Part shown: in pieces, positions 42,249 to 58,112 of the stretch
How the letters are laid out: every line of letters begins with the position of its first letter
How positions within the stretch are numbered: the first letter of the stretch is position 1
Position numbers and translations under genes: made by a program
Notes under the pieces: generated by a model
What the model was told of the DNA's origin: nothing
The model's database searches: none
What the model saw: the letters and a program-made list of their open reading frames with translations, nothing else
Assembly (NCBI GenBank): GCA_040752835.1
Contig: JBFMGG010000003.1
Location: 226,490-290,489 of the forward strand
From: Campylobacterota bacterium
GTDB lineage: Bacteria; Campylobacterota; Campylobacteria; Campylobacterales; Sulfurimonadaceae
Length of the DNA: 64,000 bases
Direction: 5' to 3'

Positions 42249-42992
42249 ATGCAATACTCTTTTTTAGCCTCATATTTACTTATCATCTTTGCCCTCTGGT
42301 ATTCGCGCCGTGAAAACTTCGGTTTGGAAAAAACGATCCTGACCAACTCGATTCTTGCGATGGTGCAGCTGGGTCTGCTGGGGTACGGGCTCGTCTACCT
42401 CTTTAAAATCGAGCATCCGTCTGTGCTGTTTTTTGTCCTGCTCGGAATGGTCACCTTCGGCGCCTTCACGGCGAAAAAACGTTCGCCTCTGGGAGAGGAG
42501 AGTTTTAAAATCGCTTTTTTCACCCTCGGCGCCTCTTCGGGGATCGTATTTCTCTCGATGACGGCGTTCGGGGTGATCCACATGGTACCGCACGAGATGA
42601 TCCCCATCGGCGGGATGATCATCGGCAACGCCCTCAACGTCTACACCCAAAGTACCGAGCGGTTTCGCGCCGAGGTAAAAAACACGATCGAGACGATCGA
42701 GGGGATGGTGGCACTGGGTGCCCCACTCAAAGAGGCGCTCTCTTTTGCTTCCAAAGCATCGGTCAAAGCATCGATGATACCGACGATCAACATGCTTCAA
42801 ACGGTCGGAATCATCCATATCCCCGGGATTACGACGGGGATGCTCCTCGCCGGGGCCGATCCGCTTGAAGCGGTCTCGTATCAGCTTGCCGTCATGTACA
42901 TGATGGTCGCCGTGGCGCTCCTCTCGGCGTTGTTCGCTACGCTGTTTTCGTACCGCGCCATTATCGGAGCGGCGTTTACAGCCCCTCGCTGA
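42249..42992 (+). CDS. fetB: FetB/YbbM (UPF0014) family ABC-type iron-export permease
   Basis: 247 aa polytopic protein with a UPF0014-like sequence (ILAMVQLGLLGYGLVYLF..., IPGITTGMLLAG). No fetA-like ATPase is adjacent. Confidence 0.75.
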   Translation: MQYSFLASYLLIIFALWYSRRENFGLEKTILTNSILAMVQLGLLGYGLVYLFKIEHPSVLFFVLLGMVTFGAFTAKKRSPLGEESFKIAFFTLGASSGIVFLSMTAFGVIHMVPHEMIPIGGMIIGNALNVYTQSTERFRAEVKNTIETIEGMVALGAPLKEALSFASKASVKASMIPTINMLQTVGIIHIPGITTGMLLAGADPLEAVSYQLAVMYMMVAVALLSALFATLFSYRAIIGAAFTAPR

Positions 42993-44214
42993 ATCTTTGC
43001 GCCTTCGGATGGACAAAACAGAGTTTTTCCCACCCCCGATTCGGACGGATCAATGTCACCCGGTGCGCTGATACGGAACGCGAAAGGGCGACGTAAAACT
43101 GCGAAGGGGCGAAGATCTCGTTGGTCTCGATGACGTAATCGGCCAAACTCATCCCCTGCGATTTATGGATCGTGATCGCAAACGCCAACGTAAGAGGGAA
43201 CTGGCTGAGGGTGATGAGTTTCTCTTCGCTCGCCGTACTCCCTTTTTCCACCCAACGGGTTTTAGTGGTATCGACCCGCTCCACTTTCACACTGATCCCA
43301 TCGGCTTTTTTAACCCAAATCACCTCATCATCCATCGAGGTGATCCGTCCCCGCTCGCCGTTATAGTAGTTCCACGCATTGCGGGTAAAGAGGATCGGGG
43401 CACCCACTTTGAACGCCAAAATCGGCTCGATCCGGCTCTCGATCATAAAGCGCTCGACATCCCGATCCTGCATCTTTTTGTCGTGGATCGTGACATAGGT
43501 CTCCACCTCGATAATCTCGCCGTGCAGGTGATCCAACTGGGAACGGTTATGGTTTTGGGCGCTGATGTTTTTCCCAAACAGCAACGTCATCGTCGACATA
43601 TCACTGTTTAACGGTTTAACCAACGCTTCGAGGGCATGATGTGCCTCTTCATCGAGACGGGCATGACGCACTTTCTCCAGCAGGCCAAGAAACTCCGCCT
43701 CGTGGGTACGATAAGACCCCTCCAAATGGAGCGTCACCAATCCGAGCCGCTCCCATGAGGGAGATTCAAAGGCAAAATAGATCGGATCATTTCCCCGCGT
43801 CACGGGGGGAAGCTGCAAAAAGTCCCCCACTACGATGACCCGACCGTTAAACTCCGCCTGCAATAACCGCAAACGGATCATATCCAGCAGCGGCGCACCC
43901 ACCATCGAAATCTCATCAATCACGATGAGTTGCATGGATCGGATCAGTTTAAGGATTTTTTTCGAAGGTTCGATTTTCCCGTTCCGTTCGAGTTCCTCCA
44001 GCGAATTTGCGATCCCGAGATCGAAAAAACTGTGCAGCGTCTGCCCACCGATCAACGTCGCCGCCATCCCCGTTGAAGCAAGACGGGCAACGCTTTTGCC
44101 CTCTCTTTGGTACGCATCGATCACCGCCAGCGTCAGGGTAGTTTTCCCCGATCCCGCCCCACCGGTAATAAAGAGGTTGGAGCGTTCCAGAATGTTCAAG
44201 GCCGATTCAATCAT
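42976..44214 (-). CDS. Pif1/RecD-like SF1B DNA helicase
   Basis: 412 aa. Walker A ITGGAGSGKTT, Walker B LIVIDEISMV, VVGDFLQLPPV, TIHKSQG and YVALSR motifs. Start overlaps the upstream vWA gene stop by 8 nt. Confidence 0.85.
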   Translation of the reverse strand: MIESALNILERSNLFITGGAGSGKTTLTLAVIDAYQREGKSVARLASTGMAATLIGGQTLHSFFDLGIANSLEELERNGKIEPSKKILKLIRSMQLIVIDEISMVGAPLLDMIRLRLLQAEFNGRVIVVGDFLQLPPVTRGNDPIYFAFESPSWERLGLVTLHLEGSYRTHEAEFLGLLEKVRHARLDEEAHHALEALVKPLNSDMSTMTLLFGKNISAQNHNRSQLDHLHGEIIEVETYVTIHDKKMQDRDVERFMIESRIEPILAFKVGAPILFTRNAWNYYNGERGRITSMDDEVIWVKKADGISVKVERVDTTKTRWVEKGSTASEEKLITLSQFPLTLAFAITIHKSQGMSLADYVIETNEIFAPSQFYVALSRSVSAHRVTLIRPNRGWEKLCFVHPKAQRFSEGL

Positions 44215-45283
44215 AAGATCCTTTCAACACGATCACCCGCCCGAAAGGAACATCCGCTTCCGCAGGGGCGATCCACAACGTCTCATAGGGAGGTTCATAC
44301 GCCGGAAACGACCCGTCCAGATCGGTAAAATAGAGCAGCGTTCGGGGCTGAGCGTGCCACGTTTCGATCCGCTCGAACACGGGCCGAAAATCGGTCCCCC
44401 CTCCCCCGGTCAAAACGTAACCGATGTTTTCGCCGTTTTCAAACCGCGCGTGGGAGCGGATGCGATCGTCGCATACGAGCAAATCGACGCTGTAAGAACC
44501 GAAAAGTTCGAGGATCGATTCGATCTCGGCGATGAACTGAGCCAGTAAATCCTCATCGACCGATCCGGAGCTGTCGATCGCGATTGCAATATCCAGGTGG
44601 CGGGAATGGGCACCCGGAAGATAGATCCCTTCGTAAAGGAGTTTCTTGCTGGGAGGCAGGATCGTAAAATCGCTGATGTAATGTCCGCCCACCGCATCGC
44701 GCAGTTCGCTGCGCCAGTCGATCAAACACCCGCGCTCTTTTCCTAATAGCCGCATCACGGCATTATTGAGCGGATCGTTTTTGGCGAACGCCTCGCGGAC
44801 CCGCCGTTCTCTTTGGGCGCGGGACAGCTTCTCATCGGCATTCTCCCCCTCCCTCCCCTCGTCCGCGTCGCGGTCGCTGGGCTCCTGATCGAGAAATTCC
44901 AAAGCGAGTTCCGCATAGATCTCTTCGGCACTCAGCGTTCCGAAACGCTTATCGTACATCACCGCCGGCGGAACTTCGAACCCGTTGTCGACAAGGAGTG
45001 CATTGATCGCGTAATCGCAGGCCATATTCCACAGCCACGGGCTGCGGTTTCCCCGTCGAAAGGTATGGGAAAGCGCTTCATGGAGCGCCGCGTTGCTCAG
45101 TGCGAACAGTTTCTGGGCATCGTTCAATCCTTCGATGTAGCCGGCACGGTATTCAAACCGCCCCTCGCGAAAAGCGAAACTTTCAAGATTGTCATTCACG
45201 ACGCTCTCCATGCCCGCGGCGATCGTCCCGAAAAATGGGTGTTCGAGAAGCAGCCGCGCTTTGAGGGGAGAAAAATCGATCAT
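44207..45283 (-). CDS. Metallopeptidase-like N-domain plus vWA domain protein (DUF2201-type)
   Basis: ~358 aa from the ATG at 45283 (ATGA overlap with the AAA+ gene stop). The N-half has LHEALSHTF (zincin-like, variant spacing). The C-half has the MIDAS elements AIDSSGSV, GGGGTD and FTDLDG. Confidence 0.8.
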   Translation of the reverse strand: MIDFSPLKARLLLEHPFFGTIAAGMESVVNDNLESFAFREGRFEYRAGYIEGLNDAQKLFALSNAALHEALSHTFRRGNRSPWLWNMACDYAINALLVDNGFEVPPAVMYDKRFGTLSAEEIYAELALEFLDQEPSDRDADEGREGENADEKLSRAQRERRVREAFAKNDPLNNAVMRLLGKERGCLIDWRSELRDAVGGHYISDFTILPPSKKLLYEGIYLPGAHSRHLDIAIAIDSSGSVDEDLLAQFIAEIESILELFGSYSVDLLVCDDRIRSHARFENGENIGYVLTGGGGTDFRPVFERIETWHAQPRTLLYFTDLDGSFPAYEPPYETLWIAPAEADVPFGRVIVLKGSYD

Positions 45284-46281
45284 AACAGATACGCGTACGC
45301 TTCGACCCATTCCCCGAAAGCGTCCAGATGTTCCATCGCGACGCCGTGGCGCTGAAGGTCCTGAACGATGAGAACGGCAAATTCATTTTTGAGTTTCAGC
45401 GTATAGCGCAGCACGTGCGACACGGTTTTGTCCGAAGGAGATGCGAGGACCCGTCCCACCAGCGCCGAGGAGAGGGCATACAACGCCGAAAGCTCCTGCG
45501 GGGCCTCCGCATCTTCGCCCTCGACGATCGCGTCGATGTCGGGCAGGGCATCCATCACCTGCACAAATCCCAGAAAATCGACGGCGGCATCGTGTCCCAC
45601 CGCGCCGCCGATCGCATCGAGCCAAAGCGGACGGGGCAGATTTGCCGATAAGATCCGATGCACCGCCTCCCAGCTTCGGGGTGTAGGGAAACTCCGTTCG
45701 TTGCGCAAGGGATCGAATCCGAACAGCGCCTCGTTTTTAAAAGCGATATAGGCCGTCACCCGCGCGTCGATCCCCTCTCCCAACGCCCAGTCGCGCCAGT
45801 CGGCCGCATTGACTTCCATTTCGACGTGAACGAAACGGTTCGCCAGTGGGCTGGGGAGGCGGTATACGACGCCGCGATCCCCTTCGCGGTTTCCCGCAGC
45901 GACTATGGCCCATCCTTCGGGAAGCGTGTATTCCCCGACTTTGCGATCGAGGATCAGCTGGTAGGCCGAAGCCTGTACCGCCGGGGCGGCCGAGTTGAGT
46001 TCATCCAGGAACAAAATTCCCTCCCCGCCCCTGGGGAGAAACGACGGCGGCGCCCACATCGCACTGTGGGAATCACGTTCGTAAAACGGAATCCCTTTGA
46101 GATCGGTCGGATCGAGCAGGGAAAGACGCAAATCGATGCATTCCACCCCTCTCTCACGGGCAATCTGTTTGATGATCGACGATTTGCCGATTCCCGGTGC
46201 TCCCCATAAAAATGCGGGAATTTTCGCCCCGATCAAAGAACGCATGGTCGTCAAAGCGTCAAGGGTTCGCATCAGTGCCAT
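45280..46281 (-). CDS. MoxR-type (AAA_5-like) AAA+ ATPase
   Basis: 333 aa. Walker A LWGAPGIGKSS, Walker B ILFLDELNSA, sensor AAGN, and LANRF. The start (46281 or 46272) overlaps the upstream gene stop. Confidence 0.85.
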   Translation of the reverse strand: MALMRTLDALTTMRSLIGAKIPAFLWGAPGIGKSSIIKQIARERGVECIDLRLSLLDPTDLKGIPFYERDSHSAMWAPPSFLPRGGEGILFLDELNSAAPAVQASAYQLILDRKVGEYTLPEGWAIVAAGNREGDRGVVYRLPSPLANRFVHVEMEVNAADWRDWALGEGIDARVTAYIAFKNEALFGFDPLRNERSFPTPRSWEAVHRILSANLPRPLWLDAIGGAVGHDAAVDFLGFVQVMDALPDIDAIVEGEDAEAPQELSALYALSSALVGRVLASPSDKTVSHVLRYTLKLKNEFAVLIVQDLQRHGVAMEHLDAFGEWVEAYAYLL

Positions 46282-47531
46282 CCTATGTTGTGGGTTTGTA
46301 TGTGCCTGCCGAAGGCGGGATTGGTTTTGACCGCCCTCTCGAAGCGGCGGTCGAGGGAAAGTTGATACAGAAGTTCGATCGGCGTTGCGGGGTTGGCGGC
46401 AAGATGGCCGTGAACCTTCGGATCGTCCGAGCCGTAAAGTCTTTCGAGAAATCCTCCCGGCAACGAAGGATTCGACGCCAAAAATTCATCGTATCTTCCC
46501 GCATCCATCAGTGCCGCAGCGTGCCGCAGCACGAGCGAAGGATTCGCGGCCAGTGATTGCAAAACCGCCGTATCGTCCGTGTCCATGAGGGTATCTTGCA
46601 TCGCGTCGTCCAGCGAAGGGTTTGCCGCAAGCTCGGTGGCAAACGCGCCGCGAAGTTTTTCGAACAGCTCCCCCGACAGCAGGGCGTTGCGCGCGATACA
46701 ATCGGGAAAACGTTCCATCAGTACCGCCCTCCCCTCCGCCGAAAGGGTCGGGTTCCGGGCAAGCAGCTCATCAACGTCCCCCCTTCCCATCAGCTCCGTT
46801 TCCAGCAGCAGCGGTTCGCGTCTGGCGAGCAAGGCGGCACGCGAAAGGAGGAGTTTTCGCAACACGTCCAAAGGGGTGCGGGGGTGAAGCGCCATCGCGT
46901 CGAGAATGCCCGCAACCGAGCGGTCAACGGGGAAGTCGAGCTCTTTGGCGATCGGCGAAAGTGCGGCAACCGCGCCGATGAGTTCGTGCGTGCCGTAACG
47001 CTCGATCAGATGGGCAAGCCCGCTCATGGCATACTGGACGTTATGATTTTTCTCCGGATCGGCGTAAAAACGTCCGATGATCGCAGCGGTCACGTCCCGA
47101 TTACGGTCGTTGTCGAAAAGCCCTTCGTTTTGCCAGTCGTAGAGCCCGAGCAGCTTGAAAAAAAGCTCGTCGGTGATGTAGGGATTTGCCAAAAAATCGA
47201 CCAGCCGTTCCTGATCTTTTGAGAGTTTAAGGCTCATCAGGAGGCGGTTGGGTTCGATTGAGCGGCACAGCCACGCTTCGAGGGGCTCGAGTGCTTCGAC
47301 CGCTATGTTCCCCTCCGCATAGAGCCGTGCCGATTCCGCCTGCTCGTAGGGGTTCATCATCCTCCCCTCAAGCGCCAGCGCCACCTCGAAAGCCGGCATG
47401 CGTACCCACTCGATCCCGTGAAGCCTGAGAAGCCGCGTGAACTCCTCTTCACTCAGCGAACGGGTTTTTCCCAACAATAAAACCGATTTTCCGGAGAGCT
47501 CGGTGTAATCCATACGGGCATTATAATCCAT
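46272..47531 (-). CDS. Hypothetical protein: BRCT-like N-terminus plus LRV/HEAT-like ANPxL repeats
   Basis: 419 aa. LSGKSVLLLGKTRSLSEEEFTRLLRLHGIEWV resembles a BRCT core. The C-half carries repeated LARNPTLS, LAANPSLD, LAANPSLV, LASNPSLP and LAANPATP units at ~25-35 aa spacing. Domain calls are tentative. Confidence 0.6.
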   Translation of the reverse strand: MDYNARMDYTELSGKSVLLLGKTRSLSEEEFTRLLRLHGIEWVRMPAFEVALALEGRMMNPYEQAESARLYAEGNIAVEALEPLEAWLCRSIEPNRLLMSLKLSKDQERLVDFLANPYITDELFFKLLGLYDWQNEGLFDNDRNRDVTAAIIGRFYADPEKNHNVQYAMSGLAHLIERYGTHELIGAVAALSPIAKELDFPVDRSVAGILDAMALHPRTPLDVLRKLLLSRAALLARREPLLLETELMGRGDVDELLARNPTLSAEGRAVLMERFPDCIARNALLSGELFEKLRGAFATELAANPSLDDAMQDTLMDTDDTAVLQSLAANPSLVLRHAAALMDAGRYDEFLASNPSLPGGFLERLYGSDDPKVHGHLAANPATPIELLYQLSLDRRFERAVKTNPAFGRHIQTHNIGWH

Positions 47532-47587: not shown

Positions 47588-47848
47588 ATGGAACGACTGA
47601 TTGAGGGGATCAACGCCTACAACGCCGGAGAATTTTCCCGTGCATACGAAATCCTATACCCGCTGGCCCAATACGAGCGCGACGACGAAGCGCAACTGTA
47701 CGTCGGAATGATGTATTTTTACGGGGAAGGACTCGAGCAAAGCGAAGAAAAAGCGATGGAATGGTGGAAAAAAGCGATGCGTTCGGGAAATCAGGATGCC
47801 GCGTATCGCCTCAGCGAGCTTAAAACCTCGACCAAAACGACGTTTTAG
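47588..47848 (+). CDS. Sel1-like repeat (SLR/TPR-type) small protein
   Basis: 86 aa from the ATG at 47588. AQLYVGMMYFYGEGLEQSEEKAMEWWKKAMRSGNQDAAYRL matches a Sel1 repeat. No signal peptide. Confidence 0.6.
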   Translation: MERLIEGINAYNAGEFSRAYEILYPLAQYERDDEAQLYVGMMYFYGEGLEQSEEKAMEWWKKAMRSGNQDAAYRLSELKTSTKTTF

Positions 47849-48594
47849 GCATTCCCCAAAACGACGTTGATGCTGTAGCGCATGTCTTCGTCGAGGCTTT
47901 CCATATTCCCCAGCATCCAGGAGAGATAGCCGCGGTCGCTTTCAACGATTTCGCTAAGGGTTTTCCCTTTGTATTTTCCGAATTTGAGCGGACGGGAATA
48001 AAAAACGGGGGTCTGGGTCAACTCGACGAGTTTGTCGATCGGATTGACTTCGCCGAAGCGTTCGGAAAGCCGCTTGCGCAGCTCGCTCAAAAACAGTTTC
48101 AATACCAGCACGTCCCCGATCGCATCGTGAGCCTTCACCTCGATCCCCAGCGCCTGCGCTTCGGCCTGCTCGATTTTGTACAGCCCGAGCCGATAACGGA
48201 AATATTGCAAACGGTGCGCTTCTTCATCATCAAACAGATGCTTAGCGCAGCGCAGCGTATCGATCAGCCGCATCCGCGACGTAAAATTTTCTTTTGCCAG
48301 CATCCCCAGATCAAACGGGGCATTGTGGATAATCAGGACGTTTTCGGGTTCATTGAGACCTTCGAGGACACGAAATGCCCCCGTCTGCGTACACGTCGGA
48401 AGCCCTTCGATCATCTCGGGCGTGATGCCGTGCGTTTCCATGGCCGGTATCGCGATGGGGACTTCGCTCGAACACAGGTCGTTGTAAACTTCTACGTTTT
48501 TCCCCTCAAGGACCATGAATCCCAGTTGTATGATCCGGTCGTTTTCGCCCGCTCCCGTCGTTTCGGTGTCGAGTAAGACGTATTTCGCCATCAA
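47845..48594 (-). CDS. DEDDh 3'-5' exonuclease with C-terminal DUF3820-like module
   Basis: 249 aa. ExoI VLLDTETTG, ExoII IHNAPFDLGML, ExoIII AHDAIGDV. C-terminal FGKYKGKTLSEIVESDRGYLSWML. Confidence 0.8.
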   Translation of the reverse strand: MMAKYVLLDTETTGAGENDRIIQLGFMVLEGKNVEVYNDLCSSEVPIAIPAMETHGITPEMIEGLPTCTQTGAFRVLEGLNEPENVLIIHNAPFDLGMLAKENFTSRMRLIDTLRCAKHLFDDEEAHRLQYFRYRLGLYKIEQAEAQALGIEVKAHDAIGDVLVLKLFLSELRKRLSERFGEVNPIDKLVELTQTPVFYSRPLKFGKYKGKTLSEIVESDRGYLSWMLGNMESLDEDMRYSINVVLGNA

Positions 48595-56054: not shown

Positions 56055-56496
56055 CGATCACCAATGTACGCGCGGTGCGGTCATGCCAGCTACGGCGGTA
56101 GGGATCGAGCATCGCCCACAAAAATCCCAGATAGAAAAGCACTTCGCTCACTACGCGGAAAACGCTCCGGTTGAACGCGCTCAAAAATCCCGGGTTCGAC
56201 AGGGTAGCCAGTTCGATCACACGGATTTTCATGATGATTTTCCCCAGGCTCGCGCCGTATTGCATCGTAAAAAACGTGTGGTAGACGATTTTGATCGCCA
56301 TAAACTCGAGGAGAAAACTGTTGGTGAGGGCAATCATCTGTTCGACCGTTTTGGCCGCGGAAATGGCATCCCACAAAATGACGAACATCAATACCGACAA
56401 AAGTATCTCATCGATCCCGAACGCCGCAGCCCGCTTGCGCAGGGAGGCGGGTTCGAGCCGTTCGCGCTCCAGCAGCGTTTCGAGTTGTTCGTCCAT
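56047..56496 (-). CDS. RDD-family membrane protein
   Basis: 149 aa from the ATG at 56496 (TGATG overlap with the purD stop). RKRAAAFGIDEIL..., three TM segments, and a C-terminal SWHDRTARTLVI typical of RDD proteins. Confidence 0.75.
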   Translation of the reverse strand: MDEQLETLLERERLEPASLRKRAAAFGIDEILLSVLMFVILWDAISAAKTVEQMIALTNSFLLEFMAIKIVYHTFFTMQYGASLGKIIMKIRVIELATLSNPGFLSAFNRSVFRVVSEVLFYLGFLWAMLDPYRRSWHDRTARTLVIDA

Positions 56497-57764
56497 CAGC
56501 GCAACGCTTGGTAGGCGATATCGGTGCGGAGTTTTTTCCCCGCGTAATGGACCTGCCCGCACAGCATGTAGGCGCGGTCCCGGGCCTGTTTAATGCTCTC
56601 ACCGACACCGACGCACACCAGCACCCGCCCTCCGGTTGCGTAGAGTTTCCCGTCCTCGGCACTGACTCCGGCATACGCGATATGGGTATTTTGGGCAATC
56701 TCCTCGTGATGAATCTCATCCACGATGATTTCGGCCGGTTCGGAATTGGTATAGGGATAATCGCGGCTGGCCATGACGACGCCGACGGCATATCGGTCGT
56801 GGAATTCGACTTTCAGGGTATCGAGCTGCTTGGTCGCCGCTTTGTAAAAGAGTTCGCTCGCCGGTGTTTTGAGCAGCGGCATCAGAATTTCACACTCGGG
56901 ATCGCCGAAGCGAACGTTGAATTCCAGCGTCAGCGGCTCGCCGTTGACGATCATCAGCCCGATAAACAAAACGCCTTCGAAAGGGGCCCCCTCTTCCTGC
57001 ATCCCTTTGAGGGTCGGACGGATGATCCGTTCTTTCACCTTCTCGTAAATCACTTCGTCCACAAGCGGCGTCGGGGCGTACGCTCCCATCCCTCCGGTAT
57101 TGGGCCCTTCGTCGTTGTCCAAAAGGCGTTTGTGATCCTGCGCCGCGGGGAGAAGGATAAAATCCTTTCCGTCGCACAGCGCGAACATCGACAATTCGTA
57201 ACCGTCCAGGAATTCTTCGACGACGACCCGCTTGCCCGCATCCCCGAACGCTTTACCGCTGAGCATCTCCGACACGGCGACTTTCGCTTCCTCATGGCTC
57301 ATCGCGATGATGACCCCTTTTCCGGCGCACAGCCCGTCGGCTTTGACGACGATCGGCGCGCTCAGCGATTCGATGAATTTGAAAGCATCCCCGATGTGAT
57401 CGGTTTCGATGTAGCGTGCGGTCGGGATGTTGTTCTTGGCCAAAAAGTTTTTCATGTAGACTTTGGAGCCTTCCAGCTGCGCCGCGGCTTTCGAGGGGCC
57501 GAAAATAACCAGCCCCTTCGATTTGAATACATCCACCACGCCCTCGCTCAGCGGCCCTTCGGGGCCGACGATGGTTAGATCGATGCCGTTATCCAGGGCA
57601 AACCGCGCCAGTTCGTCATAGTCTTTGATCGATACGTTTTCGCCGAGCATCGGCGTCGCGCCGTTACCCGGGGCAAAATAGAGTTTCGTAACCGCAGGAT
57701 CCTGTTTCAGGACTCTGCCGATGGCAAACTCCCGTCCGCCGCTACCGATGACCATTACGCGCAT
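56496..57764 (-). CDS. purD: Phosphoribosylamine--glycine ligase
   Basis: 422 aa. [15 protein letters not shown]..., ATP-grasp motifs, and [12 protein letters not shown]. Confidence 0.96.
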
Positions 57765-57914: not shown

Positions 57915-58112
57915 AGAAAACGGAAAGCCCGGGCGGGCGTTTCGCAGTAGCTTTGGTTCTCAAAGCCGAAATAAAGCGGACCGAGCGTCTATCCGGCGGC
58001 AATCTCTCGCCCGTAGGCTCAAACGAGACCGCCGACACACCAAGACGTCTACCGGTTCCACTGTATAGAAATGTAGAACCCTCAAATGCGATTGATCGCT
58101 GCGCCCAGAATA
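57915..58112 (-). ncRNA. ssrS: Candidate 6S RNA
   Basis: A TATAAT sits at 58117-58122 on the minus strand. The ~190-nt transcript folds by eye into one long imperfect hairpin. Outer pairs: GGGCG (58102-58106)/CGCCC (57935-57939) and GGTTCT (58075-58080)/AGAACC (57955-57960). A 15 x 17-nt central bubble follows (58060-58074 vs 57961-57977). Inner pairs are GGAaCCG/CGGTCC, CGTCT/AGACG, CGGCGG/CCGCCG and TCTCG/CGAGA. It ends in a GC hairpin plus T-run (57917-57943). The position upstream of purD matches my recollection of epsilonproteobacterial 6S loci. Confidence 0.55.

Follow-up and report, generated by a model that had tools for sequence, protein, structure and literature searches.

A vertically inherited MoxR/vWA module with a BRCT-solenoid partner in sulfur-oxidising Campylobacterota, and its possible link to DNA

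Overview

Four minus-strand open reading frames (ORFs), here given the working labels A, B, C and D, overlap end to end in a 64,000-nucleotide stretch of DNA from a Campylobacterota bacterium of the Sulfurimonadaceae (assembly GCA_040752835.1, contig JBFMGG010000003.1, positions 226,490 to 290,489 of the forward strand). We refer to this whole stretch as the window and number its positions from its first letter. The four genes encode, in order, a BRCT-like/solenoid protein, a MoxR-type AAA+ ATPase, a von Willebrand factor A (vWA) protein with a degenerate peptidase domain and a Pif1-family helicase. We conclude that A, B and C are very probably (about 85%) a chromosomal, vertically inherited three-gene MoxR remodelling module of sulfur-oxidising Campylobacterota, a statement that concerns architecture and ancestry. 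For its function we tentatively propose, at roughly 40%, a link to DNA.

Four overlapping genes on the minus strand

Gene A occupies 46272..47531 (419 residues from the ATG at 47531), B 45280..46281 (333 residues), C 44207..45283 (358 residues) and D 42976..44214 (412 residues), all on the minus strand. The longest ORF of C opens at 45310, and the start within its ATGA is at 45283. An earlier note on this DNA had described four overlapping minus-strand ORFs, and that description holds: the window's ORF list contains all four with these coordinates, each junction overlaps, the junction sequences agree, and orthologous contigs have been called with the same overlaps.

At the A/B junction (46272..46281, context ...TGGCACTGATG...), the two genes share either 10 nucleotides (ATGGCACTGA) or a TGATG, and gene callers have used each alternative in orthologous contigs. 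B and C share an ATGA at 45280..45283 (context TTATGATC). C and D overlap by 8 nucleotides, ATGATTGA, at 44207..44214 (context TATGATTGAATC), and the identical overlap is called in locus L002 (L-numbers denote the orthologous or related loci compared here). These overlapping junctions argue for translational coupling of the four genes in this genome, as the earlier note had predicted. A promoter and terminator scan of the operon's minus strand was uninformative, giving no convincing internal signals. The best matches of the encoded proteins are proteins from Sulfuricurvum metagenome-assembled genomes, at 90-100% identity, and we assign the window to a Sulfuricurvum species.

Genes A, B and C are the conserved unit

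We scanned genomes at one per species, and the best 80 of 239 matches fell in Sulfuricurvum, Sulfurimonas and unclassified Sulfurimonadaceae. Adjacency was counted by tblastn, and cases at a contig end (4 for B-C, 11 for C-D) were left out as uninformative. A and B are adjacent in 61 of 61 genomes. B and C adjoin in 57 of the 76 informative cases; a gap of less than 1 kb separates them in 9 and one of at least 1 kb in 6, and 4 have no B within 5 kb or more upstream. The C-D junction is kept in 33 of 69 informative cases, with gaps of less than 1 kb in 9, gaps of at least 1 kb in 21 and no D within 5 kb or more downstream in 6. Direct adjacency of C and D occurs exclusively in Sulfuricurvum-type genomes. 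In a divergent lineage (L173), A-B-C is followed by a GGDEF regulator in the C-D interval, and Pif1 lies 1.4 kb downstream.

Sulfurovum, which belongs to a different family, has A and B linked, with or without C, and no Pif1 nearby. Together with the adjacency counts, these loci identify A-B-C as the conserved functional unit. The attachment of Pif1 to A-B-C is a trait of Sulfuricurvum alone. The conserved four-gene unit that had been proposed thus shrinks to three genes, kept across Sulfurimonadaceae and Sulfurovum, with Pif1 directly adjacent in Sulfuricurvum-type genomes only.

Sequence divergence follows the hosts. Median identities in Sulfuricurvum-type and Sulfurimonas-type genomes, respectively, are 58% and 39% for A, 74% and 62% for B, 62% and 43% for C, and 81% and 54% for D; the identity of B ranges from 47 to 88% over the loci examined. 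Because identities drop with host distance while the chromosomal position stays fixed, we read this pattern as vertical inheritance.

One Sulfurovum locus may have been rearranged. In Sulfurovum lithotrophicum (CP011308, L087:12496-14645), the MoxR gene is followed, after a gap of ~1 kb, by an IS3-type transposase pair (HTH_Tnp_1 plus rve). A tblastn search finds no vWA gene in the whole locus of 21 kb. The insertion sequence element may have displaced C there, or C may have been lost.

Gene B encodes a MoxR-class ATPase

Judged from its sequence, B is a MoxR-class ATPase. It exceeds the Pfam cut-offs by narrow margins, with 29.8 bits for AAA_3 (cut-off 27), 23.5 for AAA_5 (22) and 30.4 for AAA (21.2). 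Three motifs can be read intact from its translation: Walker A, GAPGIGKS (residues G27-S34, 46180-46203), Walker B, ILFLDELN (I89-N96, 45994-46017), and sensor 1, AAGN (residues 128-131, 45889-45900), all on the minus strand. The MoxR assignment and these motifs had been recognised earlier and are borne out here.

The closest solved relatives of B are midasin AAA modules (E 8.8e-11). Its strongest family match is a phage family: B aligns over its full length with phrog_1297 ("ATPase") at E 4e-98. It is 38% identical to the AAA+ protein of Thermus phage phiFa, and its identity to the N4 gp24-like protein of phage EcP1, likewise in a full-length alignment, is 28%. NCBIfam holds no named family for A, B or C.

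Gene C joins an intact vWA domain to a degenerate peptidase site

The C-terminal part of C is a vWA domain (residues 232-353, 44225..44590, minus strand) with an intact metal ion-dependent adhesion site (MIDAS). C matches Pfam DUF2201 at 95.7 bits (E 2.9e-27), and its N-terminal part matches DUF2201_N at 71.4 bits (E 1.3e-19) over only profile positions 10-159 of 271. It also matches phrog_1314 over its full length (E 2.5e-63). A sequence search of the PDB with C returned nothing, even at E <=1. The MIDAS elements are D237-S-S-G-S241 (44561-44575), T297 (44393-44395) and D321 (44321-44323), and in our alignment D237, S239, S241, T297 and D321 are invariant, phage homologues included. The DSSGS sequence appears in 65 of 82 tblastn segments of C orthologues, and the rest carry conservative variants. 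The DUF2201 profile and the invariant MIDAS residues bear out the vWA assignment made in the earlier note.

The peptidase half looks very different. Alignment with phage homologues places a degenerate HExxHxxxxH site at residues 64-73 (45065..45094, minus strand), where C reads N-A-A-L-H-E-A-L-S-H. In the HExxH column itself C has N64-A-A-L-H68, against HELLH in the phiFa homologue and HECWH in that of EcP1; Asn replaces the first His and Ala replaces the catalytic Glu. The "zincin-like LHEALSH" previously singled out is therefore not the catalytic motif. It is an H-E-x-x-x-H offset by four residues from the true column, and its Glu is variable among orthologues (T, A, G, S, K and others).

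This loss is shared by the entire lineage. In Sulfurimonadaceae, the column is N-[AGSV]-[AS]-[LM]-H in 79 of 80 C orthologues and NASMQ in the remaining one, as opposed to HE[VIAT]xH in 80 of the best 80 IMG/VR viral homologues. Because the first zinc ligand and the catalytic Glu are missing throughout the lineage, the peptidase is predicted to be dead. We predict that C is a vWA/MIDAS cofactor with an inactivated protease domain.

A separate observation concerns naming. Phage homologues of C (H5, H7-H9, H11, H14, H17 and H21 in our set), as well as phrog_1314, are widely given the names "HNH endonuclease" or "homing endonuclease". Neither C nor the plasmid homologue has an HNH domain by Pfam, so the label looks like a mis-annotation that has spread.

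Gene A encodes a BRCT-like domain and an α-solenoid

Most orthologues of A begin at an alternative ATG, at 47513 in the window, which gives a protein of 413 residues; orthologue lengths run from 413 to 421, and we number residues from this ATG. An AlphaFold2 model built with 30 orthologues as input (predicted local distance difference test score, pLDDT, 89.8; predicted template modelling score 0.80) divides the protein into three parts: a single BRCT domain (residues 1-85, 47259..47513), a helical domain (86-195, 46929..47258) and an α-solenoid of LRV/armadillo (ARM) type (196-413, 46275..46928), all on the minus strand.

Submitted to Foldseek, the full-length model retrieved designed armadillo proteins and importin-α. 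Such solenoids swamped the search and left nothing on the N-terminus, so we modelled residues 1-196 separately. Both models have the topology β-α-β-β-α-β-α at the N-terminus, and the matches of the shorter one are near-exclusively BRCT domains (RFC1, REV1, PARP1, XRCC1, LigA and LigIV). Probabilities reach 1.00, with root-mean-square deviations (rmsd) of 2.3-3.7 Å over 73-83 columns and modest E-values of 1e-3 to 1e-1; for 2ebu the rmsd is 2.6 Å over 73 columns and for 9a6z_B (LigA) 2.3 Å over 77. A profile of the N-terminal region likewise places the BRCT domain of E. coli LigA first among PDB entries, at a marginal E of 0.014. Pfam BRCT does not match the window's own A protein. It does match the homologue P0394 at 26.7 bits, above the cut-off of 21.3, and NCBI names that protein "BRCT domain-containing protein"; a second homologue, P0278, reaches 18.1 bits. 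An L-G-K at residues 14-16 is invariant in a 30-sequence alignment. The Foldseek result and P0394 thus back the BRCT-like N-terminus that had been suggested from the letters.

The same alignment shows a dense run of invariant columns at residues 86-195 (...LLMSLKLS...NHNVQYAMSGLAHLIERYG...), the most conserved part of A. This region has no Pfam match and belongs to no recognisable family; modelled without the solenoid, its end (residues 152-196) falls below pLDDT 50 from residue 152 on. The solenoid contains five to six A-x-N-P-[ST/A] repeats, where five repeats of ANP(S/T)L type had been counted before, and the repeat claim stands: LRV_2 scores 29 bits (cut-off 27), LRV 18.4 bits (under its own cut-off), and the fold is of ARM type.

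Two features at the ends of A deserve mention. The optional N-terminal extension of six codons (MDYNAR, window 47513-47531) is kept in many orthologues, and its DNA, ATGGATTATAATGC, holds a perfect TATAAT. Its conservation could stem from a -10 promoter element, giving a short-leader transcript from near 47513, instead of from coding. At the other end, a conserved tail closes with ...HIQTHNIGW(H), of which ...N-I-G-W(-x) (window 46275-46290) is invariant. Many distant homologues end with a hydrophobic-Gly-hydrophobic motif (NLGL, NLGI, EMGMR, KIGM), which the Sulfurovum clade lacks. In form it recalls the IGF-type tripeptides with which partner proteins of AAA+ machines dock, and it is a candidate contact with B.

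We have seen the A family in Campylobacterota only (Sulfuricurvum, Sulfurimonas and Sulfurovum). Neither 50,697 phage records nor PHROG contain a homologue. One weak match, P0495, was rejected as an unrelated LRV-repeat protein in another context.

Gene D encodes a minimal Pif1 helicase

D is a minimal superfamily 1B (SF1B) helicase of the Pif1 family. It matches Pfam PIF1 (PF05970) at 98 bits (E 8.2e-28) and the solved Pif1 structures of yeast (5o6b, E 1.1e-45), Bacteroides (5fhd, E 1.3e-44 over residues 10-380) and human (6hph, E 1.2e-41), as well as phrog_325, "Dda-like helicase", at E 9e-59. Its motifs include Walker A, GGAGSGKTT (44137-44163), motif II, VIDEISMV (43900-43923), TIHKSQG and YVALSR. 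In the Pif1 family a signature motif of 21-23 residues lies between motifs II and III; the sequence of its end, GDFLQLPPV, is present in D at residues 130-138 (43801-43827). The profile match and the full-length alignments to proteins of solved structure thus agree with the Pif1-type assignment and the motifs given in the earlier note.

The physiological role of prokaryotic Pif1 is stated to be unknown, and clearing of nucleoprotein blocks has been proposed (PMC3113762). The same survey lists Sulfurovum as a Pif1-bearing epsilonproteobacterium, with one strain recorded as having one Pif1 gene. None of the papers that we read describes an operonic link between a bacterial Pif1 gene and a MoxR-vWA module.

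The 3' end of D (42976-42992) overlaps by 17 nucleotides the 3' end of a convergent gene for a FetB-like permease (42249-42992, plus strand). This leaves no space for an intrinsic terminator between the two.

Relatives of the B-C pair are common on phages and plasmids

Homologues of C occur in 446 phage records and on 123 plasmids. Identity to the phage pair is 28-38% for B and 27-31% for C. Among these relatives are N4 gp24 (AAA) and gp25 (vWFA, pfam13203), which are conserved in N4-like phages with their function listed as unknown (PMC2784036, PMC6992544). Iyer et al. described the same pair in jumbo phages, as a MoxR AAA+ ATPase-vWA chaperone-cochaperone pair with an N-terminal metallopeptidase, and suggested a role in virion assembly (PMC7824862). 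Literature searches on DUF2201 found nothing relevant, and those on COG3864 found nothing.

In 74 of the 80 best IMG/VR viral loci the two genes share a strand, with the ATPase gene in front of that for the vWA protein. In several phages the surroundings concern replication. The N4-like phages EcP1 and Presley have the order AAA, vWA, SF1B helicase, DNA polymerase, with the vWA and helicase genes directly adjacent in Presley. An array of MoxR, peptidase-vWA and SF1B helicase, which had looked unprecedented, is therefore shared by N4-like phages (gp24, gp25, helicase, DNA polymerase). Their helicase is only a distant relative of D (E 4e-12). Genes for a helicase, a primase, an initiator and DnaB come after the pair on the IMG/VR viral contig L119, and in Thermus phage phiFa an RNase H gene lies between the AAA and vWA genes.

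Two plasmids also carry a MoxR plus peptidase-vWA pair. It lies beside type IV secretion genes in Burkholderia ubonensis (L176:4916-10124) and between Sir2 and DUF262 genes in Sphaerotilus (L175:907-10623). A third protein, encoded upstream of the pair or between its two genes, differs each time and is unrelated to A. The gene upstream of MoxR on the Sphaerotilus plasmid was considered as a homologue of A and rejected (BLASTP E 0.14, no Pfam domain).

The locus lies in the core genome and attracts defence genes

The earlier note had taken the surroundings for an accessory-looking block next to a tRNA gene. They are not. The GC content of the cluster region, 0.53-0.59, is flat against 0.48-0.62 over the entire window, and the flanking gene order recurs across Sulfuricurvum: PNPase, AtpE, tRNA-Leu, acidic protein, ExoX, Sel1, A, B, C, D, FetB, AhpC, MetE. 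The tRNA-Leu gene is 1.6 kb from the cluster, with three conserved genes between, and a genomic island at this tRNA was rejected on composition and synteny. An invariant core location, which the note itself had named as a sign of housekeeping, is found across about 45 Sulfuricurvum species. Such a position without compositional anomaly argues for housekeeping rather than a conflict system.

Of the flanking genes, the one encoding an ExoX-like, DnaQ-family 3'-5' exonuclease (47845..48594, minus strand; labelled RNase_T plus ExoX-like_C by Pfam on orthologues) stands outside the overlapping set and matches phrog_192 at E 1e-43. It lies upstream of A on the same strand, within 1.5 kb, in 30 of the 61 genomes carrying A. 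In four Sulfurimonadaceae genomes the distance is within 200 nucleotides (for example in L055, L070 and L072), and it is ~110 nucleotides in L047.

No named defence system fits the locus, as the earlier note had also judged. PADLOC-DB v2 has no families for A or C, matches B only with DolB and IetA at E ~0.06, and matches D only with generic RecD-like helicase cores. The bpMoxR profile scores 13 bits on B, where its cut-off is 27. Pfam and PADLOC detect no effector, nuclease, toxin or VMAP domain in A, C or D.

Defence genes have nonetheless been inserted between the genes of the operon in relatives. Six Sulfuricurvum genomes carry a Type III-like restriction-modification (R-M) cassette (Mod, AAA_15/AAA_21 ATPase, DUF4276, Res); in some copies other genes have replaced those in the middle. 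In L026 (3805-10001), L033 (3850-9995), L034 (4373-9995), L039/L083 (L083:3867-9995) and L041 (8-2456) the insertion is precisely at the B|C junction, and in L038 (11143-17396) it is at the C|D junction. The cassette has the orientation of the operon and directly adjoins the gene that follows; in L026, the end of Res falls on the first base of C. Identity between the Res proteins at B|C and at C|D is 67%, a value that points to separate insertion events. Between C and D, L083 also has a UPF0175 plus DUF3368 gene pair (L083:11120-11901), which we take to be a toxin-antitoxin module with a PIN-like DUF3368 protein. The window has neither an R-M cassette nor a UPF0175 plus DUF3368 pair at the locus. 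The operon junctions are an insertion hotspot for defence genes, and this does not make A-D a defence system.

Two further observations concern the surroundings. In several Sulfuricurvum genomes (L003, L006, L031 and L046), ~3 kb of extra DNA separates AtpE from the acidic-protein gene, the interval that holds tRNA-Leu in the window and that measures ~0.3 kb elsewhere; this may be a real variable spot at the tRNA, upstream of and separate from A-D. Farther away, the minus-strand ORF 56496-57764 has just upstream of it, at window positions 57927-58052 (minus strand), a purD RNA motif that is full-length and scores 76 bits (Rfam RF01069, gathering score 41).

A possible function on DNA-bound proteins

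The known clients of MoxR/vWA chaperone pairs are enzymes and large complexes, and we know of no such pair tied to DNA transactions. The earlier note had nevertheless proposed a DNA-directed remodelling or surveillance machine, either directed against phages and plasmids or linked to damage. We retain DNA-linked remodelling as the best-supported inference, on the tentative footing given at the outset. The anti-phage/anti-plasmid part we consider improbable, given the core position and the absence of a PADLOC system.

By the precedent of the NorQ/NorD, RavA/ViaA and midasin MoxR/vWA couples, B would form a hexameric ring. C would dock on or plug this ring and grip a carboxylate of the client through its MIDAS, and ATP hydrolysis would then pull on or remodel the client without cutting it; no cleavage is expected because the peptidase of C appears dead. 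A would be the targeting component, its BRCT domain bringing the machine to DNA or to a replication or repair factor and its solenoid holding the client. That client might be a DNA-bound protein, for instance a complex of replication, repair or transcription that has stalled or become trapped. Four features suggest this: the BRCT likeness of A, the overlap of the Pif1 gene with C, the ExoX-like gene upstream and the presence of phage pairs in replication modules. We take the BRCT domains of RFC1, LigA, PARP1 and REV1 to be of the class that binds DNA or DNA ends. The partner of the machine in Sulfuricurvum would be Pif1, a 5'-3' helicase stripping nucleoprotein; in some relatives it would act together with the ExoX-like 3'-5' exonuclease encoded directly upstream.

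Several observations weigh against a link to DNA. BRCT domains can be pure protein-protein modules. The C-D interval of Sulfurimonas holds unrelated genes, for instance those of a hydrogenase-like complex or a P-type ATPase, and in some Sulfurimonas genomes C is surrounded by his, ftsH and pss genes and has neither A nor B within 10 kb. The synteny of AhpC with the cluster equals that of D, so the proximity of Pif1 may be mere regional synteny. On the viral side, tblastn with D and two N4-type helicases found an SF1B helicase in the flanks of 0 of the best 80 IMG/VR loci; the helicase link is thus not general and, among those examined, occurs in N4-like phages only. The neighbours of the pair in Asteriusvirus jumbo phages are structural genes.

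The main rival is a maturation chaperone for a non-DNA client, in the manner of NorQ/NorD, CbbQ/CbbO, CoxD/CoxE and RavA/ViaA, which would insert a cofactor into a specific enzyme complex of these chemolithoautotrophs or activate it. A would then be a client-specific adaptor with its BRCT domain as a protein-protein module, and synteny with Pif1 and ExoX would be a coincidence. All experimentally characterised cellular MoxR/vWA pairs are of that kind (PMC9976466, PMC3893208). The module is core-genomic and vertically inherited, its operon is looser in Sulfurimonas, a frequent behaviour of housekeeping genes, AhpC equals Pif1 in synteny, and the best 80 viral loci lack the helicase. However, the lineages examined have no gene for a candidate client enzyme as a conserved neighbour, and the functional neighbours that do recur all encode DNA enzymes. 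B is not of CbbQ/NorQ type, having no such Pfam match, and is most closely related to phage ATPases like gp24. In structure, the BRCT domain of A is similar to those of RFC1, LigA and PARP1. We regard such a chaperone as somewhat unlikely, and as the strongest of the alternatives.

An anti-phage or anti-plasmid conflict system, in which MoxR-vWA senses invasion and the Pif1/RecD-like helicase acts on invader DNA, appears improbable. Its one real source of support is the defence cargo found in the locus in some genomes. The findings that point that way are the R-M cassettes at B|C or C|D in six Sulfuricurvum genomes and the UPF0175 plus DUF3368 pair of L083, the abundance of B-C homologues on phages and plasmids, the Sir2 and DUF262 genes beside the Sphaerotilus plasmid pair, and a helicase core that D has in common with PADLOC RecD-like models. 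MoxR-vWA conflict systems do exist (PMC7159879). Yet PADLOC has no match for A, B or C, bpMoxR stays at 13 bits against a cut-off of 27, and the locus has no VMAP, effector, nuclease or toxin domain; the sole candidate effector, the peptidase, is inactivated. The position is invariant and core, with flat GC, in about 45 Sulfuricurvum species, and in Sulfurimonas the genes scatter instead of moving as a cassette. The inserted defence genes are cargo within the locus and not components of it, and the window is without them.

The weakest explanation, that the genes are a relic of an N4-like phage replication module (AAA, vWA, helicase and a nearby DnaQ-like exonuclease), either functionless or serving a resident mobile element, can draw on the N4-like order of AAA, vWA and SF1B helicase and on PHROG matches of B, C, D and ExoX that are stronger than any to NCBIfam families, but it is very improbable. 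At least two families have kept the proteins, their ATPase, MIDAS and helicase motifs intact and B 47-88% identical. The flanks have native composition and no other phage genes, integrase or repeats. D matches cellular and eukaryotic Pif1 (E ~1e-45) better than it does the helicase of N4 type (E 4e-12), and A has no phage homologue.

Returning to a link with DNA, its most specific form is a speculation that we think rather unlikely as a whole, a shade more so than the chaperone. A-B-C would be the first MoxR/vWA machine for DNA-bound clients, with a BRCT adaptor recruiting a MIDAS-vWA/AAA+ extractor that cooperates with Pif1 and the ExoX-like exonuclease, and N4 gp24/gp25 would be its protease-active viral counterpart at the phage replisome. 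By analogy, such extraction would resemble the eukaryotic AAA+-driven removal of trapped chromatin proteins, and it would assign a function to a conserved gene pair of N4-like phages and to bacterial Pif1.

The locus is of interest because it unites a MoxR/vWA subfamily widespread on phages and plasmids, a BRCT adaptor and a bacterial Pif1. Its uniformly inactivated cellular peptidase separates remodelling from proteolysis and offers a natural comparison with the protease-active phage version. Should the link to DNA be true, it yields testable hypotheses for N4 gp24/gp25, DUF2201 proteins and prokaryotic Pif1; should it be false, this is an ordinary lineage-specific MoxR chaperone operon. The MoxR/vWA kind itself is known. 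What is novel in the locus is a module of the gp24/gp25 subfamily in a core genome, the inactivated peptidase, the BRCT-solenoid adaptor and the joining of Pif1 in one genus.

Comparison with known systems

The nearest relatives by sequence are N4 gp24 and gp25, full-length homologues of B and C (phrog_1297, E 4e-98; phrog_1314, E 2.5e-63) in the same gene order. N4-like phages have an SF1B helicase and then a DNA polymerase after the pair, and the window has D after C. There are also differences. The phage pair keeps HExxH (80 of the 80 best viral loci), whereas C in the window and its orthologues read N-x-x-x-H (in one case N-x-x-x-Q). Phages lack the BRCT/LRV protein A that the window locus has. 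Unlike the N4 pair, the pair in the window is chromosomal and vertically inherited.

The ternary MoxR-vWA systems of nucleoside triphosphate-dependent conflict described by Kaur, Burroughs, Iyer and Aravind in 2020 (PMC7159879) are alike in having a MoxR plus vWA core and a third, variable component. They differ in that B reaches only 13 bits of the 27 required by bpMoxR and that the window locus has no VMAP, β-propeller, effector or peptide-processing partner. Their distribution is patchy, whereas the window locus is core-genomic; they are described as occurring preponderantly in multicellular prokaryotes (PMC7159879).

D resembles the Pif1 of Bacteroides (5FHD, 5FTB), with which it aligns over residues 10-380 and shares the SF1B motifs and GDFLQLPPV.

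B-C also resembles the characterised cellular couples NorQ/NorD, CbbQ/CbbO, RavA/ViaA and the ring and MIDAS of midasin (Rea1), which pair an AAA+ protein of MoxR/AAA_5 class with an adjacently encoded MIDAS vWA. Compared with these couples, C has an extra degenerate zincin-like domain and a third, BRCT-bearing component is present. There is no enzyme client gene nearby, the neighbours being DNA enzymes, and B scores as no named subfamily in NCBIfam. The vWA domain of NorQD sits like a plug in the pore of its MoxR ring, a binding mode that the authors of that work suggest is general (PMC9976466). By analogy, the mechanism that the module would be expected to share with such couples is the ATP-driven remodelling of a client held through the MIDAS (PMC9976466).

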